Shown in pieces: positions 1,878-54,790 of a stretch of DNA of 63,884 nt. The number at the start of each line of letters is the position of its first letter. The stretch's first letter is position 1. The notes beneath the pieces were generated by a model. The model saw nothing but the letters and a program-made list of their open reading frames with translations. It ran no database searches and was not told the DNA's origin. This DNA is from a virus (taxonomy: Duplodnaviria > Caudoviricetes). The position numbers were made by a program, and so were the translations under genes. The stretch lies in IMG/VR virus record IMGVR_UViG_3300025132_000031, positions 1 to 63,884 of that record; one strand, given 5' to 3'.

Positions 1878-1920
1878 ACTAAATCCGACAAGTCGTGCAG
1901 ACTACCTTTTAGTATCTTAC

Positions 1921-2343
1921 TTAATTACCAAACAGTAGAGGTAATAGCGACATACCACTACCGATAATGCGAGTCGTCATATCATGCTTGAGTTGAGGAT
2001 TGATAATATTTTGTAAATCCTGCTGTTGTCTTACTCCACGATCTTGAGTAGCTAAGTCTTGAATAGACCTATGTTCGGGTCCCCATTGAGATGTATCAAT
2101 ATCTTTGACATACATGCCTCTAGCGGCATCAACAGGTATCATGCCTGCAGCTTTTGTGGCTTCTAAAAGAGTATTAGTGAAAGTCTGATCATTACTTAAA
2201 GAGCCTAAGACTGCCTTAGCTTCGTCTTCTGTAAGACGACCTAACTTAGCTTTTTCTAAAGCCTTTGCATAGGTAGGACTTCTCCTTGCGGCTTCCTCTA
2301 TAAGAACCTGATTGAACTGTTTAGTATTTAATCTTTGTCCCAT
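1921..2343 (-). CDS. Hypothetical protein
   Basis: ORF in co-oriented block; upstream TACAAT -10-like box. Confidence 0.7.
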   Translation of the reverse strand: MGQRLNTKQFNQVLIEEAARRSPTYAKALEKAKLGRLTEDEAKAVLGSLSNDQTFTNTLLEATKAAGMIPVDAARGMYVKDIDTSQWGPEHRSIQDLATQDRGVRQQQDLQNIINPQLKHDMTTRIIGSGMSLLPLLFGN

Positions 2344-2380
2344 TGAAATAAGTAAAGCCTCTTTTTATTGTAATTGGATT

Positions 2381-2848
2381 TTATGATCCCAATCCTAGGC
2401 TTTTTCCTAGAACATTGTATATGGCAGTTGTGTCAAGTTGGCCCCCTGAAGAGGAGGGCATTTCTACAGTAGAAATTTGAGGAGTCAAACCGCCTGAAGT
2501 CGTCGCACCTTTTAAGTTATCCCCAGCCATTCTGAGGTTGGGTGAACTACCCCATATATTTGCAAGGTTGCTCATAATATTCTGTTGCTTCGTAAACTTC
2601 TGCCTTTTCTCTAATTCCCACTGCAACTGTTCGTTAATCATCTCTCTTTCTACTAAGTCACCCTTTACCTCTAGCATGTCTCCCGCTAGATCCATTCCCT
2701 TAGTAAAATTTAACTGATTAATCCGTTGAGCATCTTCTATCCCCGAAGTAGATTTAATGGCACTAAAACTTTCAATTGGGGGGTCACCAGGGAAGTTGTT
2801 GAGATAGGCTTGAGCAACTCCTAAGTTACTAGGTAAAGAAACTGCCAT
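2381..2848 (-). CDS. Hypothetical, putative virion/internal protein (DLAGD and RMAGD motifs)
   Basis: Tightly packed with neighbours; shared motif. Confidence 0.7.
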   Translation of the reverse strand: MAVSLPSNLGVAQAYLNNFPGDPPIESFSAIKSTSGIEDAQRINQLNFTKGMDLAGDMLEVKGDLVEREMINEQLQWELEKRQKFTKQQNIMSNLANIWGSSPNLRMAGDNLKGATTSGGLTPQISTVEMPSSSGGQLDTTAIYNVLGKSLGLGS

Positions 2849-3697: not shown

Positions 3698-4507
3698 TCA
3701 GTCTTCCATGTAAGGAAGTTTCTCAGGTTCTACCCACGGTACTAAATGAGCAACATTTTCTGCTGTCATATTTAATTTCTTACATTTAAAGAACTTCGGA
3801 GCACCCTCTCTGTTGTCTACACATTCAATAGAGGCATGGACATAGTCAGCATTATGTCTCTTCTCTGGACGTTCTCTCCATTTACCGTCTACCTTTTCGT
3901 AGCGTTTTTCATCAAACGGCACATCATAGTCTTCAATGTATTGCCATATGTCGTCATGAGTCCATTCCCTGAGAGGAAAGACCAAGGACGCAACACCCTC
4001 AGGCATTCCTCGTACTTCAACTCGAGTACCCGCATCCCCTCCTAATATCGGATCTGAATCACAATTCTTATGTCCTATCCATAACGCATCCACAAAGGGA
4101 ACACGTAATGATTCTTGTTTTGGACGCTTGAGAATATCTAAAGCAGTTGTGAAAGGTAAATCATCCGCTGGTTCCACAATCCCTGTCGGACAGGTCAATA
4201 TCGTGTTATTAAGTTTATACCAATGTTGCACTTCAAACTCGTCATCTACACGCTGCATAGCAGACTTAAAAGGATGCCATGTATAAACCAATAATTCCCA
4301 ATCTCTAATAATTCGATCTTGAAATTCATATTTAAACGGTTGCCACGGTTCTCTGAAAAATATGACAGGAACTTTAATACCATGTCTTCTTAAGAGATGT
4401 AACAAAACCATACTGTCTTTTCCACCTGACCAACAAACCATGGTCGATAAAAAATGATTCACAGAGGAATCAATAATCTGATCTGTACGTTCTAACTTAT
4501 CTCTCAC
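3698..4507 (-). CDS. PAPS-reductase-family (PP-loop) protein
   Basis: WSGGKDSMVLLHL; FPLREWTHDDIWQYI. Confidence 0.85.
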   Translation of the reverse strand: MRDKLERTDQIIDSSVNHFLSTMVCWSGGKDSMVLLHLLRRHGIKVPVIFFREPWQPFKYEFQDRIIRDWELLVYTWHPFKSAMQRVDDEFEVQHWYKLNNTILTCPTGIVEPADDLPFTTALDILKRPKQESLRVPFVDALWIGHKNCDSDPILGGDAGTRVEVRGMPEGVASLVFPLREWTHDDIWQYIEDYDVPFDEKRYEKVDGKWRERPEKRHNADYVHASIECVDNREGAPKFFKCKKLNMTAENVAHLVPWVEPEKLPYMED

Positions 4508-5473: not shown

Positions 5474-6889
5474 TTATACGTCCTCAGTTCCCATAGTTCT
5501 TCTTATCGATTCTAGTCCCTGTCCTGTAATGCCTCCTACTGCTGCTGCACCTCCACCATATTTAAGTATTTCCCAAAGCATTTCCTTTTGACCTTCACGA
5601 GTTGCAGTTTCTTTTACCATTTTCTCTTGTTGCATCTCTTTTCTTAAGTCTTCGATGCGTGTAGGCTCTGCTATTCGACGAGCCATCTCTGGAGTATCTG
5701 GCTTAGCGTACTTAAGATCATCTTGTTCTTTTTTCATGGCCTTAATTTTCTCGTTTGCTAGGTTTTGAGCTTCTAATGGTCCCTTTGCACGAGCAATATT
5801 ACGTGCTCCACGCCTAAATCCGTAGCGTGCACCCGCCGCTGCAGCCAATGTAGGTAAAATTGCGGTTGCAGCAGGCATAGATTTACCCATGAAGTTTATT
5901 TCAGGGCCATGAATACCTGTAGCAGTCCCTTTTAGGGCTCCCAAGATGTTAAATGTGCCATCATCGAACGGGTTTAAGTCTGTTTTCCTGTCAAATTGGT
6001 AAGCTTTGTACCTTCTGTACTCTGATTCAGAGACATCTGGCCGTTCTTTGCTGAATTCGTCGTAAGGAAGTAAACGTCCTGTCCGTCCTAGGAAGTAACG
6101 ACTCACTAATTCGCCAATAGGAGAATCGGTTCTACGTGGATCGCTCTCACTAGGAAGAACTGCTTTGTATCCTGCGGGTCTTCCAATATTTCCAATACCA
6201 GTTGACATAGCAATAATGGCTGGAACAGTAGCCGCTAAACGAATATTCCTGTTTTTAAGTAAAGATTCGTGTGTTGGGTTAACCTGCTTCAGTCTTGCCG
6301 CTAATTCTTGATCTCCGATTGATGCATTAGTTCCAGGGTTCTCCATTCCAGCCTGTTCTCTATGTAGTCCTTCCAGCAAAGTTAACTGTGTTAATGCTTG
6401 TGGAGCATTTAAAAACCACCAAATATTACGGAGTCCGTCACTCATTACATCAGCAGCCAAGGCACCACCTATTTGCTGTGCTCTAGCTCCTGCACTAGGA
6501 GCCTGTCCTTTTGGGTAAGGTCTTGTATAAGTTTGAGCTACCTCAGGACGTTGCTCCAAGAATTGATCTCTAGCTTTTCTCTCGTCAGGATGGAATCCCC
6601 CTAGAGGAATTTGGCCTACGGTATCTCGAATTTTTTCGCTAATTCCTCTATTTCCTTCTCTGTTAATTGGAAGATAATCCAACTGCCTAATAGCTGAATT
6701 AAATAAATCACTTTCAGCTAAATTATGAGGTAAATAAAATCTTGCTGTATCTACAGCACTAGAACTCCCTGCAATATCTTCTAAAGGAGTATTTTGATAT
6801 ACCTTTCCTAGGTTTTTTAAATCGTCGGATCGCCTCGCCTCTTGATAGTTACGAGGACTCGTGAAGAAGGCGTCTTCAAAGATACTCAT
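5474..6889 (-). CDS. Hypothetical 471-aa protein, putative internal virion protein
   Basis: Long ORF, 2-nt gaps to neighbours, Ala/Gly-rich helices. Confidence 0.75.
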   Translation of the reverse strand: MSIFEDAFFTSPRNYQEARRSDDLKNLGKVYQNTPLEDIAGSSSAVDTARFYLPHNLAESDLFNSAIRQLDYLPINREGNRGISEKIRDTVGQIPLGGFHPDERKARDQFLEQRPEVAQTYTRPYPKGQAPSAGARAQQIGGALAADVMSDGLRNIWWFLNAPQALTQLTLLEGLHREQAGMENPGTNASIGDQELAARLKQVNPTHESLLKNRNIRLAATVPAIIAMSTGIGNIGRPAGYKAVLPSESDPRRTDSPIGELVSRYFLGRTGRLLPYDEFSKERPDVSESEYRRYKAYQFDRKTDLNPFDDGTFNILGALKGTATGIHGPEINFMGKSMPAATAILPTLAAAAGARYGFRRGARNIARAKGPLEAQNLANEKIKAMKKEQDDLKYAKPDTPEMARRIAEPTRIEDLRKEMQQEKMVKETATREGQKEMLWEILKYGGGAAAVGGITGQGLESIRRTMGTEDV

Positions 6890-11570: not shown

Positions 11571-12224
11571 TTATCCATAACCAATGTTTCCCACTAAACA
11601 GCAACGTCCTTCTGCTTCTTGGTCTTTCGGTTCAACCCGATGGAAGCGTGGTCCAAGAAATACAGTTAAAGATCCTTCTTTTGCTTCAACATATTCCGAA
11701 GAACCATCGATATTATCAATAATTAAAGGTGCAGAGCCCTTAGGAGTATTGACATTGTAAGAAAAACTCAATATATAAGGGAAATGACAATGAGTAACAA
11801 CGCCGGTGTGTTTGGCGTAGGTAATTCCCCAACATTCTGCAACGTAAAACTTTGTTGTATCAAAACCTAGCGAACCTATTAAGTCCCCTCTTCTCCAATA
11901 TTTTTGATTTTCGAACCTACCGCAAGCGAAATTAACGCAAACTTCTAACATTTTGTCGTTTAAGAAGTGCATAAACTTTTGCATCGCAGGATTATCTTGC
12001 TCTATCTGGTGCAAATCCCAGGGTGTGCGTTTACTGTTCCCCTTGACAGGTCTTTCAATTAAATTTTTGATAATATTTCGCTCTAATTCGTCTTTAATTT
12101 CAGAATGATTTGGATTATCGCACTGCAAATACAAACATTCCGTTTTGTGCTGGAAGCTAAGGTCATCGACTGGCACCCCTTGCTCCATGATGCGTTGCGA
12201 TTTTACTTCGTTGGAGGCGGCCAT
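11571..12224 (-). CDS. Putative 2OG-Fe(II) oxygenase (TIGR02466-like)
   Basis: ECWG...HCH...SFSYNV...EGSLTVF...FHRV...RCCLVGN. Confidence 0.7.
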   Translation of the reverse strand: MAASNEVKSQRIMEQGVPVDDLSFQHKTECLYLQCDNPNHSEIKDELERNIIKNLIERPVKGNSKRTPWDLHQIEQDNPAMQKFMHFLNDKMLEVCVNFACGRFENQKYWRRGDLIGSLGFDTTKFYVAECWGITYAKHTGVVTHCHFPYILSFSYNVNTPKGSAPLIIDNIDGSSEYVEAKEGSLTVFLGPRFHRVEPKDQEAEGRCCLVGNIGYG

Positions 12225-24387: not shown

Positions 24388-24762
24388 ATGACTAAATTCG
24401 TCCACATGCAAACACCCACGTCATCAGAATTCTATGAATTCATTAACAATTCCCCTGTTGAAATCCTTGATAAAGAAGAAACAGAACAGATTTACAACAC
24501 TGGTGGAAAAATGTATCGCAAGATTAATTATGCTTTCAAGGTTCCATTTGACAAAGTTGAATATGAAGAATGGTGCATACAAAAATGTTTAATGGATCTT
24601 CTCAGGAATTACTGCGATAACCAAAGGATTCAACATGGTGCTATAGATGACATCCTTGCAAAGCCAAGAGACAATTTCGATCAAGAAATTAAGTTAAGTG
24701 GCGAACAAAAGTCAGTTCTATTAAATTACAGCAAGATCTGGGACAAGCTGCTTGACTCTTAA
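24388..24762 (+). CDS. Hypothetical protein
   Basis: ORF track, ATG 24388 preferred. Confidence 0.6.
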   Translation: MTKFVHMQTPTSSEFYEFINNSPVEILDKEETEQIYNTGGKMYRKINYAFKVPFDKVEYEEWCIQKCLMDLLRNYCDNQRIQHGAIDDILAKPRDNFDQEIKLSGEQKSVLLNYSKIWDKLLDS

Positions 24763-25813
24763 GTTACTCGATGCCTTCGCTGGTATAGGAGGATTCTCTT
24801 ACGCAGCAGAAAGACTAGTCGGTGGATTTGAAACTAAACAATTTATTGAAATCGACCCTTACTGTCAGTCAGTTTTAAAGAAGAACTTCCCTCACGTTCC
24901 TATACACAATGACATCACAACATTCCAGTCATACCAAGGAGAGTACGACGTACTTACAGCAGGATTTCCTTGCCAGGATTTGTCCGTGGCTGGATCGCAG
25001 AAGGGTATTGGAGAGGGAACTCGCAGCGGCCTTTTCTACGAAGTCATGCGTTTGGTTAGGATCATTCGACCTCGATTCGTCCTACTTGAAAACGTTAGAA
25101 ATCTTATCTCGCACCAGCAAGGGGAAACCTTCCAGGAAATTCTCTTTCAAATTGCCTCGGAGGGGCTTGATGCTGAGTGGGAAATTATTTCAGCTCGAGA
25201 CGTTGGAGCGTGTCACAAAAGAGAACGTATCTGGATCATTGCCTACCCCAAACACAATGGACTCCCTCCCTCTCAGGAGCAAGGAATCCATGATCAAGCA
25301 AGTGACAGAGACGAGACCAGGCAGGACACAACTCTCCAACCTCAGGGAAGCAGTCAACCCAGAAGCAGTTCAACTCTTCGAGGAACTGAAGGAGATGAGG
25401 AATCCACCTCTACCAACTCCGACAGCACGAGACCACAAGGACTCGGGACCCAACCTGAACTACGAGAAGGCTCACCAGAAAAGAAGGCTAGCTGGTTCGG
25501 CGGTCGTCTTGACGAACAGCCTACCAACCCCATGCGCTCGGGATTGGAAGGGCAGATCAGGCCAAGGTTTCCAGGATCGATCAGGTGGGAGACCCCGCCA
25601 ACTTCCAGACGTCTTAACCCGCAGTGGCGAGAGTACGTATCTGAACCCACACTTCGTAGAGGAGATGATGGGTTATCCAATCGGGTACCTCGTTTAAAGG
25701 CACTTGGGAACACAATCGTTCCTCAATGTGCAGCTATTCCTCTACAACGAATCAAACACTTATCTACTTACCCCCACTATGAACAACGAAGCATCTCTCG
25801 AACCTCTCAATGA
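24752..25813 (+). CDS. dcm: DNA (cytosine-5) methyltransferase, main chain
   Basis: Motifs I DAFAGIGG, IV GFPCQD, VI LLENV, VIII HKRERIWI, X LKALGNTIVP; no motif IX. Confidence 0.9.
   Translation: MTLKLLDAFAGIGGFSYAAERLVGGFETKQFIEIDPYCQSVLKKNFPHVPIHNDITTFQSYQGEYDVLTAGFPCQDLSVAGSQKGIGEGTRSGLFYEVMRLVRIIRPRFVLLENVRNLISHQQGETFQEILFQIASEGLDAEWEIISARDVGACHKRERIWIIAYPKHNGLPPSQEQGIHDQASDRDETRQDTTLQPQGSSQPRSSSTLRGTEGDEESTSTNSDSTRPQGLGTQPELREGSPEKKASWFGGRLDEQPTNPMRSGLEGQIRPRFPGSIRWETPPTSRRLNPQWREYVSEPTLRRGDDGLSNRVPRLKALGNTIVPQCAAIPLQRIKHLSTYPHYEQRSISRTSQ
24909..25697 (+). CDS. Embedded alternative-frame ORF, probable second MTase subunit (TRD and motif IX)
   Basis: Three LPTP repeats and YLNPHFVEEMMGYPIGY (motif IX-like). 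Confidence 0.65.
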   Translation: MTSQHSSHTKESTTYLQQDFLARICPWLDRRRVLERELAAAFSTKSCVWLGSFDLDSSYLKTLEILSRTSKGKPSRKFSFKLPRRGLMLSGKLFQLETLERVTKENVSGSLPTPNTMDSLPLRSKESMIKQVTETRPGRTQLSNLREAVNPEAVQLFEELKEMRNPPLPTPTARDHKDSGPNLNYEKAHQKRRLAGSAVVLTNSLPTPCARDWKGRSGQGFQDRSGGRPRQLPDVLTRSGESTYLNPHFVEEMMGYPIGYLV

Positions 25814-36083: not shown

Positions 36084-36590
36084 ATGACTTCTCTTAAGCC
36101 TCCTAAATCACCACATCATTGGGATCAACGATTCCTTTATGCAGCTCGAATGTTCGCTGGTTGGTCTAAAGATCCAAGTACTAAGGTCGGAGCAATAGCA
36201 GTAAGAGATCGCAGAATATTAGTAGAAGGATATAACGGCTTGCCCAGTGGCATTACTGATTCAGATACTCGACTAAAAAATAGAGACACTCGGCTAAGTT
36301 TAACTGTTCATGCCGAGATGAATTGCGTTGCATATGCAGCACGTAACGGGGTCTGCTTAGCTGGTGCAACAATGTATATTTGGCCGTTCATGGCCTGCAG
36401 TCAATGTGCCGCCGTATTAATACAAGCCGATATTGGTAAGATTGTAATTCCAGACTATGTAGAACCTTATCGTTGGCAAGAATCATTTGATAGAGCCAGA
36501 GAAATGTGTGTCGAAGCTGGAATATCTGTTCACAAAATACCAATGGAAGGTGATATAGACGAGGTTGAACATTCTGTCACTGAAGATTAA
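36084..36590 (+). CDS. dCMP deaminase
   Basis: SKDPSTKVGA, GYNG, HAE, CSQC. Confidence 0.92.
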   Translation: MTSLKPPKSPHHWDQRFLYAARMFAGWSKDPSTKVGAIAVRDRRILVEGYNGLPSGITDSDTRLKNRDTRLSLTVHAEMNCVAYAARNGVCLAGATMYIWPFMACSQCAAVLIQADIGKIVIPDYVEPYRWQESFDRAREMCVEAGISVHKIPMEGDIDEVEHSVTED

Positions 36591-36625: not shown

Positions 36626-36850
36626 ATGTCTAAGTTTGAATTAGGCCATCGAGTCACTAATCAAGTTGATGGGAGGGATGGTTTTGTTGTCAGTGCCCCA
36701 TATAATAAGCTCGTCCCTGTTGCTATAGAGCAAAGTACTCGCAAAGAATTATGGCCTGAGACTCAAGTCTTAATGAAACCACAAGACGAACAGCTCGTAG
36801 CTATGGGAGGCGATTACAACGCACCACCAGGTTTTCCTTTAAACATTTAA
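36626..36850 (+). CDS. Hypothetical SH3-like protein
   Basis: FELGHRV...GFV. Confidence 0.6.
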   Translation: MSKFELGHRVTNQVDGRDGFVVSAPYNKLVPVAIEQSTRKELWPETQVLMKPQDEQLVAMGGDYNAPPGFPLNI

Positions 36851-36851
36851 T

Positions 36852-37532
36852 ATGGCTCAATGGGCATTACCTCCGAAGCTTCATTCCGAAATAGAAGGAG
36901 GTCCTCTATGTTTTCATGCCGACCACAATATAGGCTCGAAGGATGGACGTGTTCCAAGATACAATGATAGCCACTCGTGTGTTAGATGTATTAGTGCTTT
37001 AACAGAAGGACGTTTAGCTCTCGATGTTCATCGAATAGAAAGAAAATATAGACGTAGGTTTCTAGAGTTTTGGTCGTTCGTAGAGATCAGAGGACCCAAC
37101 GAATGTTGGCCATGGAGAGGAAAGTATCATTCAAGATCTAACTCCAGTTACTTTGCTATGCCTAGGCACTGGGGATCAGGAAGACAATACTCTGCTCAAA
37201 GATGTGCCGTTTGGTTTACGTGGGGAGACGTTGGTCGACTACCTATTAAACCTGTTTGTGGCGATCATAATTGCTGCAATCCCTTGCACTTAAGAGTTAA
37301 AGGCGTTCCTCATTACTTCCAAGACCGTCACCTTCAATCAATCGACTTAGAATTCAATTCCAATAAATTATTAGGCGAGACACAATTATTTTTAGAGACA
37401 ACATACGATAAAGATCCTAAACGATTTGAGAAACTTCAAAAAGCCAATAAGATTTGGATTGACTTCCGTCTAGCATCCAACGGTCCGGTTGATCCTATGA
37501 GCATCCACTCTCTCAACGCCCATAAGAAATGA
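36852..37532 (+). CDS. HNH/His-Me finger homologue, catalytic His apparently absent
   Basis: FWSFV...ECWPWRG...AQR...PVCGDHNCCNPLHL. Confidence 0.7.
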   Translation: MAQWALPPKLHSEIEGGPLCFHADHNIGSKDGRVPRYNDSHSCVRCISALTEGRLALDVHRIERKYRRRFLEFWSFVEIRGPNECWPWRGKYHSRSNSSYFAMPRHWGSGRQYSAQRCAVWFTWGDVGRLPIKPVCGDHNCCNPLHLRVKGVPHYFQDRHLQSIDLEFNSNKLLGETQLFLETTYDKDPKRFEKLQKANKIWIDFRLASNGPVDPMSIHSLNAHKK

Positions 37533-37551
37533 ATGACCTAAGATAGATGTA

Positions 37552-38454
37552 TTGAATTACTCAGAGAAAGAGGTAATGGCAGCATCATTTGCTAAGGATC
37601 AAGAAGCTTTTTATCGCTCCCAAGGCTGGAAGAATCTGGACGACAAGGATAAAGCTAGAAATAAACATATTTACGATCAAATAATAAGCTCGGCAGGTGA
37701 AGACAAGTCCTTATCCTATGACGAATATGAAAATATATTTAAGGATCGTGGAGATGCATGGGGCAAGTACGCCTATAGCAGGGATGCTTTAGCTGCTGCG
37801 ATGGCCGAAGCGGGGACCTCAGGCGGAATTAAACTAGATGCAAATGCTCGTTATATGAGGGATAATGATTTAGCTTTTGATGGAGACGATCTTTTATTAA
37901 GAGCTGACGGAGGTTGGGATGATTTTGATATCGACCTTAGAAGCTCGGGTAAAGCCCGTTTCGAAAGAATGGAAGAAGATGGTGATGACGATTACTGGAA
38001 TATCTATAGATATACAGGTGCTCCAGCCGTAGTAGAAAAAGAAAAAGAAATAGAAGAAGAAGTGGTACAGCCTATCGTAGAAGATACAGTTAAACCTAAA
38101 CCAACAGATCCATATCTTATTGACAAAAGAGAAGAGTGGGACGAAACGACTGATCCAACCCGCACACCTACTCCTAAAGTAGGGGGTCGTGGCATGCAAG
38201 ATTATATGCCAATACAAATGGATAGGTGGATGAATGTAGGTGTTAATCCTGGTCGCAGATTAGGTGTTGATTTGACTCCTATGGAACAGCTAGGAAGTAT
38301 ACCTTTTATCACAGCAGGACAATACGATCAAAGTTTAAACAAAAAAACTCCAACTCTTTCTGGCGGAAGATTCTATGGATTTCTTAAGAACGAACCTGGT
38401 AGTGCGTCGTCTTTAGCTAGTGGTCTTATCGACGATATGAAAAAGACAATATAA
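37552..38454 (+). CDS. Acidic hypothetical protein
   Basis: 300-aa ORF. Confidence 0.75.
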   Translation: MNYSEKEVMAASFAKDQEAFYRSQGWKNLDDKDKARNKHIYDQIISSAGEDKSLSYDEYENIFKDRGDAWGKYAYSRDALAAAMAEAGTSGGIKLDANARYMRDNDLAFDGDDLLLRADGGWDDFDIDLRSSGKARFERMEEDGDDDYWNIYRYTGAPAVVEKEKEIEEEVVQPIVEDTVKPKPTDPYLIDKREEWDETTDPTRTPTPKVGGRGMQDYMPIQMDRWMNVGVNPGRRLGVDLTPMEQLGSIPFITAGQYDQSLNKKTPTLSGGRFYGFLKNEPGSASSLASGLIDDMKKTI

Positions 38455-38488
38455 CAGTTAAGATATAAATATTAAGACTAAAGAGAAC

Positions 38489-39316
38489 ATGTCAACTCCA
38501 GTATTAAATGACCCTACAACTGCAAGGGAAAGAACGCAGGAATGGTTGAGAGGAGTGTACAGAGATGAACTTGGTAGAGAAGTAGACCAAGAAGGTTTAG
38601 ATTATTGGACTGCAGACATACATGACCGTGGTCAAAATCGCAACAACGTTCTGTCTAATATTCGACGTAGTGACGAGAAATGGTTGGCAGATACATATGA
38701 AAGAGAACTAGGTAGAGGTCTTGGCGATGAAGGTAGAGAATACTGGATGGGAGACCTTCGAGGCAAGGGATCAGGCAAAGATGATTTAACCTACGGTTCT
38801 GATAGACCAGTTCAAACCAGAGATCAAGTTCTAGATAACATCAGAAGATCTGAAGAGTATAAGAATTATCAGGGTGGTGCTGATCCTGAGGATCCAATCA
38901 TTAAAAATCCTATAACTCCACCAGGCGATCCAGATCCAGTAGTTCCAATCGTTCCTATACCTACTCAGCCAGATCCAAACACTGATCCAAGAAATATTGA
39001 TTGGGGTAAATTCAATCCCAATACAATGCCAGAGTATAAAATAGATCCCAACTCACCAGGGATTAGTGCTGCTGTTAGTGCAGGCAACAGAATGACCGAT
39101 GATTTCTATGGCCGCTTCCTACCTAATTGGAAACGCACTACTGATTTAGGTACATTAGAGATGAGCTACGCTAATAACAAAAATATGAATCGCCTATTCA
39201 ATAGAGACGATAAAGGCAACGTGACCGGCGTTAATATTACGGTTTCTGATTACGAAGATCCAAAGGAAATGTTTGACTATTACTACGACAAAATGTACGG
39301 AGACAAAGACGATTAA
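38489..39316 (+). CDS. DUF4214-like repeat protein with Pro-rich linker
   Basis: ELGREVDQEGLDYW and ELGRGLGDEGREYW, each followed by NIRRS[D/E]E. Confidence 0.75.
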   Translation: MSTPVLNDPTTARERTQEWLRGVYRDELGREVDQEGLDYWTADIHDRGQNRNNVLSNIRRSDEKWLADTYERELGRGLGDEGREYWMGDLRGKGSGKDDLTYGSDRPVQTRDQVLDNIRRSEEYKNYQGGADPEDPIIKNPITPPGDPDPVVPIVPIPTQPDPNTDPRNIDWGKFNPNTMPEYKIDPNSPGISAAVSAGNRMTDDFYGRFLPNWKRTTDLGTLEMSYANNKNMNRLFNRDDKGNVTGVNITVSDYEDPKEMFDYYYDKMYGDKDD

Positions 39317-39394
39317 TCTTTACATTTCTTAATCAGATTACTATTGCATACCTAGGAATTTCTGCCTAACCTTCACCAAGGTGATGGGTTACCT

Positions 39395-40159
39395 GTGGAT
39401 TCTTTCCAAACTTGTTCTGTTCAAAAAATTGCTGCGACAGAAATGCCGCAACGATTAATTTACACAGCCTTATATTCTGCCAGATTTGGTGGCTCTTTAG
39501 CAGAAAAAGAACTGCAAAGAGAAAATGATAGTAATCAATATGCTGAAGATTCTTGTGGTCACTACATAGCTGAACACTACAGAAATAGCAGCAATAAATT
39601 ACCTTCTTGGAATCTTTATTCTCCCTTAGAGCATCCAACTATCTCTTTCGAAATCAAAGCAAATCACTCGACTATATATGAATTAGCAGTCGAAAGCAAC
39701 TCTCTTGTTTTTACCAATCAAACATTAGAAGAAGTTGCAGAAGGCACTCAATCGTTATTAAAGAATAAAGCCACGCCAATAGAAGCCTTGTTCGGCTCAC
39801 GCCCTGTCGGAAATTACCCTGACCATGCAGGTCATCGTCATCCATGGAGTGAAGAAGACAGAGAGGATCAATTGTCTTTTGGATTGTCTACCGCTTTAGA
39901 TATACAGGACAAAAAAGAGAAAGGAATATCTGCCGAACAAAGTAGTCAATGGCTCACTGTGAATGTATTGCAAAACTCAATAGCTTCGGGTAGTCTGCGT
40001 TCATGGCTACAACTACTCGACAGTCATTCTCGCCCTCATAAGTCTTATGAGATGAGAGATGTTATGTCGAAGATTTCTGATCATATCCAATCTTGGATCC
40101 CTGAAGTCTACAGTTGGTGGTCTACGCAGCACAGGTCTAAATTAGATCTTCGAGTTTAA
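39395..40159 (+). CDS. Cyanobacterial-type ThyX homologue lacking the catalytic motif
   Basis: SPLEH, RPVGNY, SLRSWL, EMR and W.PE align to ThyX; RxHR...S motif replaced. Confidence 0.75.
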   Translation: MDSFQTCSVQKIAATEMPQRLIYTALYSARFGGSLAEKELQRENDSNQYAEDSCGHYIAEHYRNSSNKLPSWNLYSPLEHPTISFEIKANHSTIYELAVESNSLVFTNQTLEEVAEGTQSLLKNKATPIEALFGSRPVGNYPDHAGHRHPWSEEDREDQLSFGLSTALDIQDKKEKGISAEQSSQWLTVNVLQNSIASGSLRSWLQLLDSHSRPHKSYEMRDVMSKISDHIQSWIPEVYSWWSTQHRSKLDLRV

Positions 40160-40160
40160 T

Positions 40161-40343
40161 ATGGATGAACTACTGAAACTAGGCATCTTTCATGATGGAT
40201 GCTCTGATCTTCTTGATCAAATAGAAAAACAAACCAAGTTCAAGTCACTAAAGAACAAGGCTCAGCACATAGAAGAATCTGCTGATTTATTATTTGTCGA
40301 CTTTCAACGAGACATAACACATGGCAAGACCGCAACCGGTTGA
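40161..40343 (+). CDS. Hypothetical protein
   Basis: Coupled ORF. Confidence 0.5.
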   Translation: MDELLKLGIFHDGCSDLLDQIEKQTKFKSLKNKAQHIEESADLLFVDFQRDITHGKTATG

Positions 40344-40767
40344 ATTACTTGTTAAGTTTTTTCCAGAATTAATAGATAAGACAGTTGCTTCTTCTAACAA
40401 GGAAGCTTCTAAGGAATTGAATGTCAGGATATGTGAAGCGATTATGTCTGACATGATCAGACATTTTGACAGTATTAGAAGTTACCTAGGTGATGGAGCC
40501 ATCATATTGAATCTCTTGTCTGAACATGTCCAAGACCGACAGAATTACGTCAATAAATTTATGATGGAACAAGACTTGAAAGATGCAGAAGAGAACAAAG
40601 ATACAACAGTTGTAGAGTTCTGCAAAGATGCATTAAAAACTTTTGATGCTATAGATTTTGAGAAGGAAATATGTTTTATTTTGCTGGATAAATCAGGCGG
40701 ATCAATACTCAAACTGCCTAGAGACAATCCTGCAAAACGCATTCAATCAATGATGGATGGATTATAA
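40321..40767 (+). CDS. Hypothetical protein
   Basis: Coupled ORF. Confidence 0.7.
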   Translation: MARPQPVELLVKFFPELIDKTVASSNKEASKELNVRICEAIMSDMIRHFDSIRSYLGDGAIILNLLSEHVQDRQNYVNKFMMEQDLKDAEENKDTTVVEFCKDALKTFDAIDFEKEICFILLDKSGGSILKLPRDNPAKRIQSMMDGL

Positions 40768-41403
40768 ATGTCTCGTAGTGCTACTGAATGTCCGGCTAAG
40801 TGTGATCTAGCTCCACCAGTAGACGTTGTAAGAGCTGCTCGTTCTGTCTTAGGGGCTATAGATTTAGACCCCTATTCCACACCAGATATTAACCGTTTAG
40901 TTCAAGCTGCTCGTTTCTATGACCGCAATGAAATATCACTAGAAGAAATTATACGTACTGATTGGGAATCTCCTAATGGTAAGCGTGTCTTCGTTGGAGC
41001 ACCTACAGGTGCAGCTTTAACTCGACGACTACTCAATAAAACATTAACCGAATACAGAGCAGGTCGTATCGATCACGCAGTGCTATGGTTAGCCCATAAC
41101 GAAGCACTGATTAGGGCACCTTGGGTCTGGGACTTTCCCGTTTGTATTCCATTTAGAAGATTGCGACCCACTTGGTGGGATGATGAACTGGAAGTATTTA
41201 GAGGGGTAGCTCCATCTGATTGGTCTGCTGTGGTATATCTTCCTCCACCAGAATCACATCAACAGTTTGATGCGATGGTTTCTCGCTTCCATAATGCTTT
41301 CAATCCTATTGGCCGAATTGTATTTAATGAATATAGTGGTAGTAATGATTGGGAAAAATCCTATCAAATTACTGTGAAGAAACCATATAATTATAAATCT
41401 TGA
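40768..41403 (+). CDS. Phage Dam-type N6-adenine MTase homologue with NPPY replaced by GAPT
   Basis: AARSVLGAIDLDPYS...N..V.A.RFY...RVFVGAPTG...EY.AG.I..AV...PVC...R. Confidence 0.7.
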   Translation: MSRSATECPAKCDLAPPVDVVRAARSVLGAIDLDPYSTPDINRLVQAARFYDRNEISLEEIIRTDWESPNGKRVFVGAPTGAALTRRLLNKTLTEYRAGRIDHAVLWLAHNEALIRAPWVWDFPVCIPFRRLRPTWWDDELEVFRGVAPSDWSAVVYLPPPESHQQFDAMVSRFHNAFNPIGRIVFNEYSGSNDWEKSYQITVKKPYNYKS

Positions 41404-41859
41404 ATGACCTTAATAGATCCGCTATTTGATAATTCCCCTGACATCTTCTTGGTTCCAACAGGTCAAAAATTTTTGACGATTAGAGCAATCATTTATGACT
41501 CGTGGATCATGTGGAAAGACGCTCTTCCTTGTGACAAAGAACATCACTCACTACTATCCCATGATGTATATAACAATATCATCGAGTTAGCTACAAGAAT
41601 ACATAAACTTCATCAATCGTTACCTACTTACAAAGGAACATCAGAAACTCCTTTTGAATTCGTCTTATGGTGGGATCCTACCGATGCTGACGAAGACTGG
41701 AGCACTGGAAAGACTTGTCGATTCATGATAGAAGACTATTCAGCTCAAGACTTACTGCATTACAACAGCATGAAAAGAAATAGTCGCCTCTCCTTAAAAG
41801 AATTAACAAGTAAGCTTGTTCAAGCTTCTGCTATTCCTCAAGTGCCTAAGTCAGGATAA
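41404..41859 (+). CDS. Possible degenerate peptidase M15 (endolysin-like) homologue
   Basis: W.DAL...NIIELA.RI...PF..V.WW.P...WSTGKTCRF versus SxHxxGxAxD. Confidence 0.45.
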   Translation: MTLIDPLFDNSPDIFLVPTGQKFLTIRAIIYDSWIMWKDALPCDKEHHSLLSHDVYNNIIELATRIHKLHQSLPTYKGTSETPFEFVLWWDPTDADEDWSTGKTCRFMIEDYSAQDLLHYNSMKRNSRLSLKELTSKLVQASAIPQVPKSG

Positions 41860-42128
41860 ATATCTTTCTTCACTTCCCAGGCGGCTGATCTAGCACCTAA
41901 AGCACCTCTGCCTGCTTCCTCAAAGACCTTACCTTTTTCTGCCTGCTGTGCAGATCTTTGACTCATGGTTGCTATACCTCTTCCTCTAGCATCGAGGCTC
42001 TTCCTTCCGCCCGTACTTCCACCATAGGATTGAGCGTTAGAGTTATATCTCCTAGCCTGTGCTAAATAATTACGTACTAATGCGTCCTTCTTTCTGTACC
42101 TGTAAGGAGCGCTTGAATTACCTCTCAA
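41838..42128 (-). CDS. Small basic protein
   Basis: Arg/Lys-rich ORF. Confidence 0.55.
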   Translation of the reverse strand: MRGNSSAPYRYRKKDALVRNYLAQARRYNSNAQSYGGSTGGRKSLDARGRGIATMSQRSAQQAEKGKVFEEAGRGALGARSAAWEVKKDIYPDLGT

Positions 42129-42179
42129 AACTTGTTAGTACTTGATTCCTTTTCTATCCTAGGCAAAATAGAAACATGA

Positions 42180-42500
42180 ATGGAAAAGACTCGCTTTGAT
42201 CTCGTCCCTTGGCAAGCTGTTGGAGACATCGCTGACGTTCTCGGCTACGGTGCTCGAAAGTATAGTTCTAATAACTGGTGCAGGGGAACTGAGTGGGGGC
42301 GTTACTTTGCCGCACTCTGCAGGCACCTGTTCGCATGGTGGAGAGGAGAGGATCGTGACCCCGAAACAGGATTCTCACACCTCGCCCACGCCGGATGTTG
42401 CTTGCTCTTCCTCATGGAATATCAAAGAAACGGATGGGGAACCGATGACAGATTCACAGGTCCAGACTCCGAAGATTTCACCAAAGGAGATGGCAGGTGA
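42180..42500 (+). CDS. dATP/dGTP diphosphohydrolase domain (DUF5664)
   Basis: KTRFDLVP...GARKY...NW...RHL..W..GED.DPETG.SHLAHA.C. Confidence 0.9.
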   Translation: MEKTRFDLVPWQAVGDIADVLGYGARKYSSNNWCRGTEWGRYFAALCRHLFAWWRGEDRDPETGFSHLAHAGCCLLFLMEYQRNGWGTDDRFTGPDSEDFTKGDGR

Positions 42501-43231: not shown

Positions 43232-43579
43232 TTACTCGCCAGGTTCAAGAACGATAGCTTCCATATCTAATTCCATACCTACATTCTCTTGCACCGTCTC
43301 TAAATAATCCTCGGCATCTTCCCACGTTGGCATGTATCCATTAGCGGCTTCGAACTCTTCAACAGCAGTCTCAGGCATAACAGCAACGCCTTCGTTCAAA
43401 TTAAAACTAAAGCCTGCTTCGTGACTACTGGCAACAAAGGTTTGCTTCTGTCTGAACCGAGCCTCCCAACAAGCAAGTAATGCCTCGATGAGTTCGTCCT
43501 TTGAGTATGTCTGCACTTCGAGAGATATTCGATGCAGCATGAACTGTTGTTCTTGAGTTAACGACGGTACTGGGTTCAT
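43232..43579 (-). CDS. nblA: NblA-like phycobilisome degradation protein with acidic C-terminal extension
   Basis: SLTQEQQFMLHRISLEVQTYSKDELIEAL; AGGAGG SD before ATG 43579. Confidence 0.65.
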   Translation of the reverse strand: MNPVPSLTQEQQFMLHRISLEVQTYSKDELIEALLACWEARFRQKQTFVASSHEAGFSFNLNEGVAVMPETAVEEFEAANGYMPTWEDAEDYLETVQENVGMELDMEAIVLEPGE

Positions 43580-43940
43580 TGTTTCCTCCTTTTGAAAACC
43601 AATGTTCGAATACTTCAGAGCTTCGAGGCTTGGTCCATACCTCAATCCTGGCAGCTCTAGAAGAACAGAAGAAAGCTTGTGCTTTAAACCATTCCTTCCA
43701 TTCTGCTGATCCTTTTTGAGAATTGCATTGAACGCAAGCAGGGATCAAATTAGATCTCATGCTACTGCCACCACGGACTCTTGGCCGTATATGATCTAAT
43801 GTTAGATGAATTTGATTCTTACCACAATAAGCACAACACCCCCATTCGTCTTTTATTGACTGACGGAAACGTTTGCGAGCAGCTTTACCTGAGAGGTCTA
43901 CCAGACCAAACACGTAGGTACCCCAGTGTTCTGGTGTCAA
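43425..43940 (-). CDS. HNH endonuclease
   Basis: CAYCG...TLDHIRPRVRGG...NLIPACVQCNSQKG. Confidence 0.9.
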   Translation of the reverse strand: MTPEHWGTYVFGLVDLSGKAARKRFRQSIKDEWGCCAYCGKNQIHLTLDHIRPRVRGGSSMRSNLIPACVQCNSQKGSAEWKEWFKAQAFFCSSRAARIEVWTKPRSSEVFEHWFSKGGNNEPSTVVNSRTTVHAASNISRSADILKGRTHRGITCLLGGSVQTEANLCCQ

Positions 43941-50841: not shown

Positions 50842-51588
50842 CTAGTCTGGTTCTTCTTTTGGAGGTTTACCAAATGACAAGAACGTATCTGATGAATAAA
50901 AATAACCTTGTTCATCCTGAATACTTGTCGGTTTCACAAATTCCGTAGGATCAGGAGGAAGGAAATGACACCAACCAGTAGCGATATATTTTGTTTCAGT
51001 AGGACTAACAATACCTCTATGAGTATACGTCCAATCGGGAGGCCAAATAACTGTCGAACCTTTTACGGCTTTCGTTTGATAATTCTGATGCAGCCATTCC
51101 GTGCCTCCTCCATCTTGCACATCGTTGAGATACGTCATAAATACTAAATATCTCGTGACAGTAGAACGACTCATTGTTGTTCTTTCTGAATGCCAACGAT
51201 AAAAACCTTCCCCCGGTTCATACTTTTGAATATTAAAAAAATCCCAAGCAGAATTACCCCAAGGTTGACATCCTTTGCTTACCCAAGGGAACTTAATTTC
51301 GTATTCATCTAAAACTTTATTTAAGGCATTATTATATCTTTCAATTCTTTCATCTTCCAAGTAGTGAGGAACAGACAAATCTGTAGAACGCTTCATACTA
51401 TGATCGAGACATAATTCTTTATTTGCTTTCGTTTTCCCCTCGGATTTTACCCCATGAAATGTTCCAAATTTTTTACTTTCCCATTGAAGATTTCCTGAAG
51501 GATGCTCTTCAAAGAAATCAATTAATCCATCACAAATCTCAACATCTATTTGACTGCTATAAATGAAATCTTTACTCATTTTTTCCAT
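50842..51588 (-). CDS. 2OG-Fe(II) oxygenase
   Basis: NIQKY.PGEG...WHSE...FMTYLNDV..GGGTE...THRG...KYIATGW. Confidence 0.9.
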   Translation of the reverse strand: MEKMSKDFIYSSQIDVEICDGLIDFFEEHPSGNLQWESKKFGTFHGVKSEGKTKANKELCLDHSMKRSTDLSVPHYLEDERIERYNNALNKVLDEYEIKFPWVSKGCQPWGNSAWDFFNIQKYEPGEGFYRWHSERTTMSRSTVTRYLVFMTYLNDVQDGGGTEWLHQNYQTKAVKGSTVIWPPDWTYTHRGIVSPTETKYIATGWCHFLPPDPTEFVKPTSIQDEQGYFYSSDTFLSFGKPPKEEPD

Positions 51589-52234
51589 AATTAAATGATG
51601 CACTTATACGAGGCGTTTTTTCTGAATTACGAGTAACTCCATGTGATAAATAAGAAGGAAAGAGTATCAAAGTTCCTTCTTGAATTGGTAATGCTTCTCC
51701 TACATAGATTCTGTCCATAGGCTGCATTCCTATAGTCCCATCGTGATGAAATGGTACTGGTGAATCTATATAAAATGAGCCTGAACGTTTTTTACTTTCT
51801 TTTGGTAATTGATAGTAATAAACTCCTGATATTAAATGTGGTCTATGCTCATGTGTATGAGCATAATCTCCTTCGTTAAAACGACTCAGCCATGAAGAAT
51901 GATATCTCAAGTTCCTTGTTGTTTCTATTGGATGAAGATCAGAATTAACCGACATCGCAAAGCTTAAAATTTCTTGTTCAACAATATTAGGTAAAATGCT
52001 CAGTTCTTGAAATAAGTCAGGAGGAATGATGTCTGTGTCATTCTTGGTCATACTATTCATTGCAGTTGCAGAGACCTCGTGTGTCTTGCCCCAATCTTCC
52101 ATGTATTGAAACGTTGCTTGAGACTCTATAAATTCACTTAATTCTGCCTGTATTTCATTAAAGAGTTGATGTTCTCGCAAGGATATGACACCTATATGAG
52201 TAGGAAAACATGCGTGAAATTCATCTTGTTGCAT
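51572..52234 (-). CDS. TIGR02466-like 2OG-Fe(II) oxygenase
   Basis: HEH...SGVYY...EGTLILFPSYLSHGV...RISASFN. Confidence 0.85.
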   Translation of the reverse strand: MQQDEFHACFPTHIGVISLREHQLFNEIQAELSEFIESQATFQYMEDWGKTHEVSATAMNSMTKNDTDIIPPDLFQELSILPNIVEQEILSFAMSVNSDLHPIETTRNLRYHSSWLSRFNEGDYAHTHEHRPHLISGVYYYQLPKESKKRSGSFYIDSPVPFHHDGTIGMQPMDRIYVGEALPIQEGTLILFPSYLSHGVTRNSEKTPRISASFNYGKNE

Positions 52235-52287
52235 AAAAAAACCGCCCATACCACTACAGTATGGACGATCTTTAATAAAAAATCTAT

Positions 52288-53178: not shown

Positions 53179-53476
53179 TATCACTCTCTTTGTTGTCACT
53201 GCTATCTTGAACAGGATCAAAATCAAGACGTACAGGATGTGCTGTATTGAATGCACGAATTTGTGCCTGAGTTTTTTCGTCATGCCATAATTCCACTTGA
53301 CGTTCGATTTCTTTCATTCCAACATGTTTTGCATATGTTTCAGCTAAACCTGTATATGTATTACGTAAAGGAATAGGAGCTTCATCTCTCCTATACAGTT
53401 CATACAAATAGCTCATGAAGTCAGATCTATTCTGATTGTTTCTTACCCTCTGCAATGGGGTCATCGTGTCTGACAT
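53156..53476 (-). CDS. Hypothetical cyanophage protein (LY...R......TYTGL)
   Basis: ORF track. Confidence 0.6.
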   Translation of the reverse strand: MSDTMTPLQRVRNNQNRSDFMSYLYELYRRDEAPIPLRNTYTGLAETYAKHVGMKEIERQVELWHDEKTQAQIRAFNTAHPVRLDFDPVQDSSDNKESDNETQTAA

Positions 53477-54149
53477 TTTTATCTTTAGGACTTCTCAAAG
53501 AATAGCTATCATTATTCTCTAAATCAAGGATCTGCGAATCACCTCTTCCATAAGGAGGTATGGGAACAATATTGAAGGCTAGGGATTCTCTTGTTTTCTC
53601 TGAGCGATGCATAGCAATTTTATGCATTAAGTAACTTGGGAACAGAATTAATCTTTGATGTTCAGGAGGGATAGTCCATAAATCTGCTGTTTCCAATGGA
53701 ATCTTTCCATGTACGTCGTAATCTGTCTCCATCTTGTAGCTGCCATGGTATTGCAAAGGACTGGCAACTTCAAAGCCAGCAGCATCGTCATCATATTCAC
53801 CATAATAAAAAACGCCGCTATAAAACGAATTACGATGATTATGCCATTGAGAATCTTGGTCACTATTCGTTTTAGTAATCCAAGAAGTAGTTATTTTCCA
53901 GTCATTACCGGTTTCTCCTGTTCGGTATTTGAAGACTTCAAGATTAATTAACTTGAAAACTTCAAGCAAAGATTCTCGAATTGCAGGCATAGAATCTAAA
54001 ACTTGTATTGATTGTTGAATATTTTTTTCAGTTTCATATTTAGTAGCCTTAATTGCTTCATGAGATTTCCCCTGCAATAACGTCACGTCAATATCTAACT
54101 TTGCAATAAAGACATTAGAAGCGAACAAAGGTAATACATCTATCTCCAT
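53427..54149 (-). CDS. TIGR02466-like 2OG-Fe(II) oxygenase
   Basis: SW...HNH.NS..SGVFY...LILFPSYLMH...RESLAFN. Confidence 0.85.
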   Translation of the reverse strand: MEIDVLPLFASNVFIAKLDIDVTLLQGKSHEAIKATKYETEKNIQQSIQVLDSMPAIRESLLEVFKLINLEVFKYRTGETGNDWKITTSWITKTNSDQDSQWHNHRNSFYSGVFYYGEYDDDAAGFEVASPLQYHGSYKMETDYDVHGKIPLETADLWTIPPEHQRLILFPSYLMHKIAMHRSEKTRESLAFNIVPIPPYGRGDSQILDLENNDSYSLRSPKDKNVRHDDPIAEGKKQSE

Positions 54150-54790
54150 TAATACAACTCCTTGTGGTAAGGACAATTCTTGGACGGTACGTAATTAATA
54201 TTGACAACAAATCTAGCAAAAGTATCACTAGTTGATGAGCCACAGTGCTCATGTTTATTATTAAAAATTGCCAATCTATTTGCTTGACTCATTATTTTTT
54301 CACCTGGCTCACCATTCTCATCTTTCAATCGAGTATATCCATCACATGTATTGAGGTAAAAAACAGCATTAAACATTGAATCAAACGCCCCTTTTCCATC
54401 CTCATCTACACGATCTTGGTGATAGTGTCCTTCTACCACTTTTCCTTCTGTATGAAAATTCACATTCGCTTTAATTCGAATCGTAGCTAACGGATTTAAG
54501 ATAGTAAACAATTGAGACATAACAGGCCGCAACAGATCCAACCTGCAGTTAAAATCCATTCCATTATGTCCGTAAGGATTGGGATAAAAAATATGCTGAT
54601 ATAAATCGTCAAAAAGAGAACAACTTCCTTGATAATTATTTACTGCAGGCGTTTCTCCTTTTATGGGATCATAGACAATCATATCTAATTTCCATGTAGC
54701 TAAAGGAGACATGAAAAACTCCTGAAATGGAGTAAACACTTCAGGAGTTACAACGTTATCAAAGACTAAATAATTAGCCATTTTTTCCAC
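54149..54790 (-). CDS. Cyanophage 2OG-Fe(II) oxygenase-like protein
   Basis: RIKAN...HQD...FYLNTCDGYT...NRL..F....H...R.V.NINY. Confidence 0.85.
   Translation of the reverse strand: MEKMANYLVFDNVVTPEVFTPFQEFFMSPLATWKLDMIVYDPIKGETPAVNNYQGSCSLFDDLYQHIFYPNPYGHNGMDFNCRLDLLRPVMSQLFTILNPLATIRIKANVNFHTEGKVVEGHYHQDRVDEDGKGAFDSMFNAVFYLNTCDGYTRLKDENGEPGEKIMSQANRLAIFNNKHEHCGSSTSDTFARFVVNINYVPSKNCPYHKELY

Follow-up and report, generated by a model that had tools for sequence, protein, structure and literature searches.

Conserved enzyme-like proteins that lack canonical catalytic residues in an early-gene block of an uncultured marine phage lineage

Results

Four intact enzyme-like genes and their relatives

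The IMG/VR virus record IMGVR_UViG_3300025132_000031 was analyzed over its whole length of 63,884 bases (the window; estimated completeness 76%). It is a tailed-phage genome with four enzyme-like open reading frames (ORFs) packed tightly on the plus strand: HNH-like (36852-37532), ThyX-like (39395-40159), methyltransferase-like (MT-like; 40768-41403), and M15-like (41404-41859). An earlier note on this DNA had described them as catalytically dead enzymes. The ORFs are indeed all intact, the strings quoted in the note (SAQR, KPVCGD, VGAPTG, and EDWSTGKTCR) are present, and RHR and S-x-R-Y are absent from the ThyX-like protein. The proteins descend from enzymes, except that the M15-like one shares only a predicted fold with its namesake. 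The canonical mechanism of the ancestral reaction is no longer open to them, and selection keeps them. The region is a block of early genes for replication and nucleotide metabolism in an uncultured marine phage lineage.

Relatives were collected by searching viral contigs with an MT-like profile, which gave 56 loci with identities of 43-83%; the longest of their contigs reaches 94 kb. Gene presence at these loci was determined by hidden Markov model searches of six-frame ORFs, and all gene counts are conditional on the MT-like gene through which the loci were retrieved. A related-locus search with the single ThyX-like sequence returned no locus. The lineage consists of a low-GC group (median GC content 0.41), in which ThyX is degenerate or missing, and a high-GC group (median 0.62), in which ThyX is canonical. 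The GC content of the window is about 0.42. The ORFs of the four proteins are open in all relatives examined.

The HNH-like protein

The HNH-like protein joins an N-terminal Cys/His cluster to a His-Me-finger scaffold without the catalytic His. It matches PHROG endonuclease families (phrog_1872 at 6e-11, others at 2.7e-6 and 1.6e-5) and has no Pfam HNH_3 match at E ≤ 1; the orthologue in relative L010 reaches 0.031, under the cut-off. The ESM Atlas places it with viral hypothetical clusters, and HNH_3 appears only at rank 17. A profile of seven orthologues was aligned by hhalign to gp71 of Gordonia phage Yvonnetastic (96.8%, E 2.3e-10), itself a Pfam HNH_3 (PF13392) member at 8.6e-11. The alignment pairs S-A-(Q/P)-R with K-A-H-R and I-K-x-V-C-G-D with V-R-H-T-C-D-N (K.VCGD on RHTCDN), which bears out the proposed replacements of AHR by AQR and of HxC by PVC. 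The family helix G-T-x-x-x-N reads G-V-P-H-Y-F in the HNH-like protein (alignment A9).

Residues were counted in 46 sequences, 45 from related loci and one from the window. His occurs in none of the 46 at the AHR column, where P (23), Q (10), Y (6), A (4), or S (3) stands instead; we take this His to be the general base of the HNH nuclease. The column of the metal-binding helix Asn (156) holds F in 18 proteins, H in 17, Y in 10, and R in one. Ten Cys and His residues, C20, H25, C43, C46, C85, C136, C141, C142, H146, and H154, are found in 46/46, and C85, C136, C141, C142, and H146 among them are the retained residues of the structural zinc loop. The HNH-like protein may be a zinc-stabilized protein that binds DNA without cutting it.

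Cyanophage S-EIVl has an unannotated ORF of 225 residues that is related to the HNH-like protein (26% identity, E 1e-15), nearly matches it in length, and likewise carries Q in place of the His. It lies at 5878-6555 on the plus strand of that locus (L012; KJ410740). The annotation of the record instead has a 146-residue coding sequence (CDS) nested in it in the same orientation, together with two short hypothetical CDS running the other way.

The ThyX-like protein

The ThyX-like protein keeps the Thy1 fold and has lost the FAD- and dUMP-binding residues. It matches Pfam Thy1 (PF02511) at 35.1 bits against a cut-off of 24.8 (E 1.5e-8) over profile positions 40-191 only, and it scores 39 bits with the NCBIfam equivalog TIGR02170, below the cut-off of 87.9. 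Relative L010 has a canonical ThyX in the same slot (Pfam 9.7e-38), which aligns to the PBCV-1 ThyX structure (PDB 2cfa). The profile of the window clade aligns to this L010 protein at 99.8% in hhalign. V-E-S replaces (R/T)-H-R, and T-L-E-E replaces S-x-R-Y, so the reported loss of RxHR...S stands. Q occupies the Arg position of A-R..L-P and H that of D-V-R; PBCV-1 ThyX and the canonical relatives have R at both. Following the structural literature, we take the replaced residues (RHR, S-x-R-Y, and the two arginines) to bind FAD and dUMP. PDB sequence searches with the ThyX-like protein, with alignment A4, and with alignment A5 of the HNH-like orthologues gave chance-level rows only.

ThyX matches are present at 49 of the 56 loci: 25 are canonical, 22 degenerate, one intermediate (L040), and one too fragmentary to assign (L038). 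Four further loci with full flanks lack the gene. The RHR-type motif (T-H-R) and S-x-R-Y are kept in 25/25 canonical relatives, and the aligned canonical proteins retain both arginines as well. A 14-sequence alignment (A11) forms a gradient of four canonical proteins, two intermediates with S-x-R only (P0164 and L009), and eight fully degenerate ones. The old active-site segment is nearly invariant among the canonical proteins and widely divergent among the degenerate ones. Median GC is 0.62 for loci with canonical ThyX, 0.41 for those with degenerate ThyX, and 0.42 for those without the gene. This distribution indicates that the loss of ThyX is later than that in the other three families and specific to the low-GC sub-lineage; it is stepwise, with deletion in some relatives.

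No ThyA, and no Thy1 match besides the degenerate one, was found in G002, a 95%-complete relative. A working thymidylate synthase therefore seems to be missing from the low-GC sub-lineage, which keeps the dCMP deaminase. The H-R-H at residues 147-149 of the ThyX-like protein was considered as a substitute for RHR and rejected: only R148 is kept in other degenerate copies, and a canonical relative has it too. If FAD and dUMP binding has been lost, the protein of the low-GC sub-lineage may be kept because its fold or oligomer serves a secondary role.

The MT-like protein

The MT-like protein has a Dam-derived class I methyltransferase fold without motif IV. Neither it nor any of eight close representatives has a Pfam match, and it has no PHROG match. 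The only tblastn match in phages was a "methyltransferase" of an Alteromonas phage (25% identity, 9e-5), which belongs to PF05869 Dam (4.7e-8) and has N-H-P-F opposite G-A-P-T of the window protein. In the 90% clusters the family comprises 742 proteins at E ≤ 0.01; 120 of them were listed, all without a Pfam domain. A HMMER search of 1.84 billion representatives gave 4850 matches at E ≤ 1e-3, of which 504 reach 1e-10 or better and 15 reach 1e-30 or better. Among 34 sampled matches, four lie above the PF05869 cut-off (P0195, P0203, P0210, and P0199), eight lie below it, and 22 have no Pfam match. The remote PF05869-type relatives have N-P-P-Y or N-P-P-G at motif IV. The MT-like family aligns to one of them, P0203 (PF05869, 1.3e-15), at 99.1% in hhalign with G-A-P-T on N-P-P-Y, in agreement with the earlier reading of a NPPY-to-GAPT change.

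The AlphaFold2 model of the MT-like protein has a mean predicted local distance difference test score (pLDDT) of 89.5 and places the GAPT tetrapeptide directly after predicted strand 73-76. The best Foldseek matches are N6-adenosine methyltransferases: the cap-specific adenosine methyltransferase CAPAM (E 9e-4), RlmJ, and KsgA. In VIA, the top 50 of 50 rows have the class I fold of S-adenosylmethionine (SAM)-dependent methyltransferases (Z 7.2-9.1). They are mostly methyltransferases, including E. coli Dam, T4 Dam, and TaqI, and also spermidine synthase, a precorrin decarboxylase, and uncharacterized proteins.

Motif IV, (D/N/S)PP(Y/F/W/H), occurs in 0/47 and 0/57 MT-like proteins, and its position is variable, with 22 different ten-residue segments at residues 73-82 in the 57 sequences. 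Invariant residues are D32, D34, N42, W66, R73, E112, R131, and R183. The cofactor-side D-x-D-P at the end of strand 1 is kept, with both D32 and D34 in 57/57. The MT-like protein retains this cofactor-side D-x-D and lacks the adenine-side motif IV.

Elsewhere in the window, an ORF at 43425-43940 (minus strand) strongly matches HNH endonuclease families (phrog_2214, 1e-26), and one at 24752-25813 (plus strand) strongly matches DNA methyltransferase families (phrog_363, 3e-69). The record therefore carries strongly matching homologues of a nuclease and a methyltransferase beside the inactive-looking ones.

The M15-like protein

Searches of Pfam, PHROGs, phage genomes (tblastn), and the ESM Atlas gave no sequence link between the M15-like protein and a named family, and none of the 37 homologues found has a Pfam domain. 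Its AlphaFold2 model, built with 40 sequences, has a pLDDT of 89.9. Foldseek against the PDB returned nothing at E ≤ 1e-3, only weak rows for the Hedgehog N-domain. In an exhaustive VIA search the best match is the Zn DD-peptidase 1lbu_A (Z 9.1, rmsd 3.2, 110 of 151 residues aligned), which lies 3.5 Z units above the next row, ShhN at Z 5.6. At least ten further rows have the LAS fold: Hedgehog, VldE, VanXYg, VanX, MepA, DacB, PLY500, LysB4, and the RB49 and T5 L-Ala-D-Glu peptidases. BFVD gave three matches at E ≤ 1e-3, and its "Peptidase M15A C-terminal" rows have a probability of 1.0. The second-best BFVD match is an uncharacterized 110-residue protein of Bacillus phage PBS1, a uracil-DNA phage (E 5.8e-4, TM 0.47/0.61), which may be coincidence.

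The zinc-ligand set H-x(3-6)-D...H is not conserved in the M15-like family. The only polar columns at ≥70% in the 40-sequence set are D32, H67, H70, E81, D91, and C105, with none after residue 105. Counts in 57 sequences are 56 for G102, 55 for W99, 54 for D91, 51 for H70, 49 for H67, and 39 for C105. The note had equated SxHxxGxAxD with EDWSTGKTCR. The predicted fold and the lack of a conserved H...D...H agree with its peptidase claim; the residue equation is only putative, because the protein has no sequence link to M15. Trp stands in 55/57 proteins at the position equated with the first zinc ligand. In hhalign, the probability of a match to a genuine M15_3 domain, taken from a related contig, was 0.2.

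Two close relatives have a lysozyme-like protein whose C-terminal part is a Peptidase_M15_3 domain; it is encoded at 1417-2547 (minus strand) of L016 (domain match 7.8e-14) and at 661-1824 (plus strand) of L017 (1.2e-10). The L016 copy keeps S-x-H-x-x-G-x-x-x-D, and in the L017 copy Y stands in place of the His. Neither the window record nor G002 contains a lysozyme-like/Peptidase_M15_3 match.

Selection and population variation

The ratio of nonsynonymous to synonymous substitution rates (dN/dS) was calculated between relatives, and medians were taken within the low-GC sub-lineage over pairs with 0.05<dS<1. Ratios for the four genes together span 0.003-0.16, with medians of 0.008-0.108. HNH-like is the most constrained gene of the block (0.003-0.06, median 0.008 from four pairs) and exceeds the flanking dCMP deaminase in constraint. 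MT-like (0.06-0.15, median 0.048) and M15-like (0.05-0.15, median 0.069) follow, and ThyX-like is the highest (0.05-0.16 in the less saturated pairs, median 0.108 from 13 pairs). Control medians are 0.021 for the dCMP deaminase and 0.043 for DUF5664, and the median for the neighboring orf148 is 0.051.

No indels were found within the four genes in four independent marine metagenome runs. Variant tallies were drawn from 40 of 418 population variants. Synonymous to nonsynonymous changes among the variants listed number 10:1 in ThyX-like, 3:1 in HNH-like, and 1:0 in MT-like. Some metagenome reads have joints with sides of 26-97 letters within MT-like and M15-like at 85% likeness; such joints often come from other organisms. 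The contention that the block has not undergone general decay is upheld by purifying selection on all four genes and the absence of frameshifts.

Neighboring genes and their co-occurrence

The block is flanked by intact enzymes of nucleotide metabolism. Upstream lies a dCMP deaminase (36084-36590, plus strand; PF00383 1.4e-17, phrog_174 2.3e-37), found at 42/56 loci. Its translation contains HAE and C-x2-C, the motifs that it had been said to keep. Downstream lies a DUF5664/dATP-dGTP diphosphohydrolase-like gene (42180-42500, plus strand; PF18909 9.7e-32, phrog_801 1.7e-41), found at 37/56. A stretch of about 20 bases just upstream of it (about 42140-42175) is invariant in six relatives.

Between the deaminase and HNH-like lies orf74 (36626-36850, plus strand), a small conserved ORF present at 39/56 related loci without a Pfam or PHROG match. 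Four plus-strand genes are interspersed among the enzyme-like ORFs. The first, orf300 (37552-38454), belongs to no family, evolves fast, and is of variable length. In relatives it has 38-72% identity and differing lengths, with a dN/dS of 0.33 from a single usable pair, and in other metagenomes it shows in-frame indels and one 1-base indel. Kinship of orf300 with the gene after the HNH-like ORF in S-EIVl was rejected (BLASTP E 1.1). It is followed by a DUF4214-domain protein (38489-39316; PF13946 1.5e-10; 27/56 loci). The small, poorly conserved orf60 (40161-40343) has tblastn matches in L003 and L004 alone. In contigs from two metagenome runs, one base is missing at 40230 and one is inserted behind 40235, which restores the frame two codons later, and four of nine listed variants are nonsynonymous. 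The coding status of orf60 is doubtful. The fourth, orf148 (40321-40767), has no significant family.

orf148, MT-like, and M15-like abut with zero gap at 40767/40768 and 41403/41404. M15-like is present at 56/56 loci and directly downstream of MT-like in 54. orf148 is present at 55/56, the exception beginning at a contig end, and in most lies directly upstream of MT-like. HNH-like is found at 45/56, and the loci without the upstream genes mostly have short upstream flanks. Together, orf148, MT-like, and M15-like may form an obligate module that is probably noncatalytic. Co-folding of MT-like with M15-like scored 0.00 in a run without controls, which speaks neither for nor against binding.

The apparent 320-base gap after M15-like is occupied by a 96-residue ORF on the minus strand (41838-42128), which closes the plus-strand gene run. 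Its DNA is 78% identical across six relatives, and many differences appear by eye, uncounted, to lie three bases apart. tRNA and Rfam scans of the block found none, a promoter and terminator scan found no excess over shuffles, and PADLOC matched only the deaminase.

The phage and its distribution

Most genes of the window have no family in PHROG and Pfam scans. Recognizable genes encode a primase-helicase, an exonuclease, Gam/Gp157-like and DprA-like proteins, endonuclease V, several 2-oxoglutarate (2OG)-Fe(II) oxygenases, and tail fibers. The window also encodes DUF3288 and DUF4214, which we take to be mainly cyanobacterial families. A blastn search of the block against phage records found no DNA-level match. 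The closest isolates by protein are the Synechococcus phages ACG-2014f (ThyX) and S-EIVl (the HNH-like gene), and the host is therefore probably a cyanobacterium. Nearly identical block DNA occurs in marine metagenome runs of eight studies, with the possible source study P1 excluded. At least half of the sampled words were present in 11 of the 20 runs carrying block DNA, and the listed runs with block DNA include no RNA run.

Three further features of the record were recorded. An ORF open at the window end (3-1877, minus strand) has DUF4214 repeats and a PT-HINT/intein-splicing-like domain (7.4e-10 and 9.6e-6). Four 2OG-Fe(II) oxygenase-like genes lie on the minus strand at 11571-12224, 50842-51603, 51572-52249, and 53427-54176. 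A gene resembling phosphoadenosine phosphosulfate reductase lies at 3698-4507.

Discussion

Wherever HNH-like, MT-like, and M15-like proteins were found in related contigs, they are without the canonical residues, also in phages with canonical ThyX. The earlier note held that orthologues with retained motifs would refute its reading. The catalytic His is seen in 0/46 HNH-like proteins and motif IV in 0/57 MT-like ones, and M15-like has no conserved His/Asp pair. For ThyX the loss is shared at the 22 degenerate loci, and the motifs are kept at the 25 canonical ones. Three families are residue-less across the lineage and the ThyX loss is confined to one sub-lineage, and the locus is therefore a conserved early-gene block and not the product of a joint event. 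The absence of canonical residues combined with purifying selection excludes general decay and makes a retained noncanonical role the simplest reading. The earlier note had proposed that several enzyme folds were exapted as sponges, decoys, dominant-negative inhibitors, or parts of a transcription complex. Exaptation survives as a reading for the separate proteins and not as one coordinated event, since the ThyX loss is found in the low-GC group only; these particular roles are hypothetical. We consider it probable that the four proteins keep noncatalytic or altered roles.

Several observations weigh against this reading. The inactivity of the four is judged from canonical motifs, and other residues could support chemistry. 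The MT-like invariant polar set (D32, D34, N42, R73, E112, R131, and R183) fits an enzyme with another substrate as well as a binder. H106 (35/46) and the invariant H146 and H154 of HNH-like could in principle form an unconventional site. M15-like is tied to its family by predicted fold only, and its Z of 9.1 is just above the level of unmatched models (7-8). The deletion of ThyX in four relatives and its divergent old active-site segment are also expected of slow loss. As to selection, dS is saturated in most pairs, and dN/dS in the high-GC sub-lineage is 0.14-0.57 for all genes and is uninterpretable. The controls are raised there too, and these values were therefore set aside as a codon-bias artifact on dS.

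One or more of the four could still be enzymes with changed chemistry or substrate, which we regard as unlikely overall and most plausible for MT-like. Such an enzyme might be a SAM-dependent transferase acting off adenine N6, an M15-like protein with a noncanonical metal site, or an HNH-like protein with a relocated general base. The MT-like family has an unusually large invariant polar set that includes D32 and D34 at motif I, and its remote relatives grade from NPPY through NPPG to no motif; the motif IV position itself, however, is free to vary, as its 22 segments show. H67, H70, D91, and C105 of M15-like are conserved in the 40-sequence set, but H67 (49/57), H70 (51/57), and C105 (39/57) are not invariant in the larger one, which argues against a metal site. 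HNH-like has its invariant H146 and H154. Pfam, NCBIfam, PADLOC, and PHROGs suggest no other activity for any of the proteins. The question of chance resemblance concerns M15-like only, which might be an unrelated small alpha/beta protein that was never a peptidase. This would account for the lack of any sequence signal (Pfam, PHROGs, tblastn, and Atlas), the hhalign probability of 0.2 with M15_3, the empty Foldseek search of the PDB at E ≤ 1e-3, and the middling Z values, which the search tool flags. It does not sit well with the 3.5-unit lead of 1lbu over 110/151 residues, the ten or more additional LAS-fold rows, or the BFVD matches with M15A rows at probability 1.0. We give this explanation a minor share of the probability for that gene.

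The possibility that the four genes are decaying remnants, under relaxed selection and still open by chance, is largely refuted and retains very little probability. ThyX is the gene to which it would best apply: it is missing in four relatives with full flanks, its old active-site segment is hypervariable, and its dN/dS is the highest of the four. Set against this are the low dN/dS of all four genes (0.003-0.16), ORFs that are open throughout the relatives, a population without indels in the four metagenome runs whose listed variants are mostly synonymous, and a constraint on HNH-like that exceeds that on the dCMP deaminase. A retained noncatalytic or altered role accordingly remains the preferred reading for the four proteins.

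A more specific scheme can be drawn for ThyX-like. ThyX active sites are assembled from several subunits of a tetramer, and a residue-less but fold-competent copy of the cyanobacterial type could therefore co-assemble with the host ThyX. ThyX-like would then be a dominant-negative or regulatory subunit that throttles or redirects dTMP synthesis while the phage dCMP deaminase makes dUMP. Independently of this, inactivated enzyme folds would make up an obligate module of three proteins, orf148, MT-like, and M15-like. We offer this scheme as speculation with a low chance of being right. If it holds, ThyX-like would represent a new phage control over host thymidine supply, and its regulatory role could indicate unusual pyrimidine use in the low-GC lineage. 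If any of the four acts on host enzymes or defenses, a new mode of phage-host interaction would follow.

ThyX provides a natural series of a metabolic gene that ceases to be an enzyme, with canonical, intermediate, degenerate-but-constrained, and deleted states at one slot, and its state follows the genome GC content, which shifts from about 0.62 to about 0.41. The invariant trio of orf148, MT-like, and M15-like is a well-defined experimental target. The block also defines three uncharacterized marine-virus families that automated annotation would miss or mislabel as nuclease, methyltransferase, and peptidase. Listings and abstract openings of the literature on S-EIV1 and cyanophages, on cyanophage ThyX, and on phage pseudoenzymes contain nothing on a degenerate ThyX or on these families.

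The four proteins share with pseudoenzymes in general, which are inactive homologues retained for binding or regulation, the loss of catalytic residues under purifying selection. M15-like shares its predicted fold with LAS/M15 zinc D-Ala-D-Ala and L-Ala-D-Glu peptidases, such as the DD-peptidase of Streptomyces albus (1lbu) and the phage M15A endolysins, but it has neither sequence similarity to them nor the ligand set and sits among early rather than lysis genes. ThyX-like belongs to the fold family of the cyanophage and cyanobacterial type of ThyX and of PBCV-1 ThyX (2cfa) and occupies the genomic slot of its relatives' canonical ThyX. The L-E-H-P motif, the insertion of the cyanophage type, and the C-terminal tail are all retained, but the protein lacks RHR, S-x-R-Y, and two arginines and falls under the equivalog cut-off. 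HNH-like aligns with the homing-type HNH_3/His-Me finger endonucleases (gp71) at its C-W-x-W start, at the hairpin, and at the zinc-binding loop C..C-x-N-P-x-H. Unlike them, it has P, Q, Y, A, or S in place of the general-base His and F, H, Y, or R in place of the helix Asn, and it carries an extra N-terminal domain of about 70 residues with invariant C-x4-H and C-x2-C. MT-like is related to the phage Dam-type N6-adenine methyltransferases (PF05869) by profile homology, the D-L-D-P motif, and the class I fold. It differs from them in having no motif IV and no Pfam match, and it is longer, having a C-terminal extension and a conserved P-W-x-W-D-F-P-x-C-x-P-F-R-R-L block.

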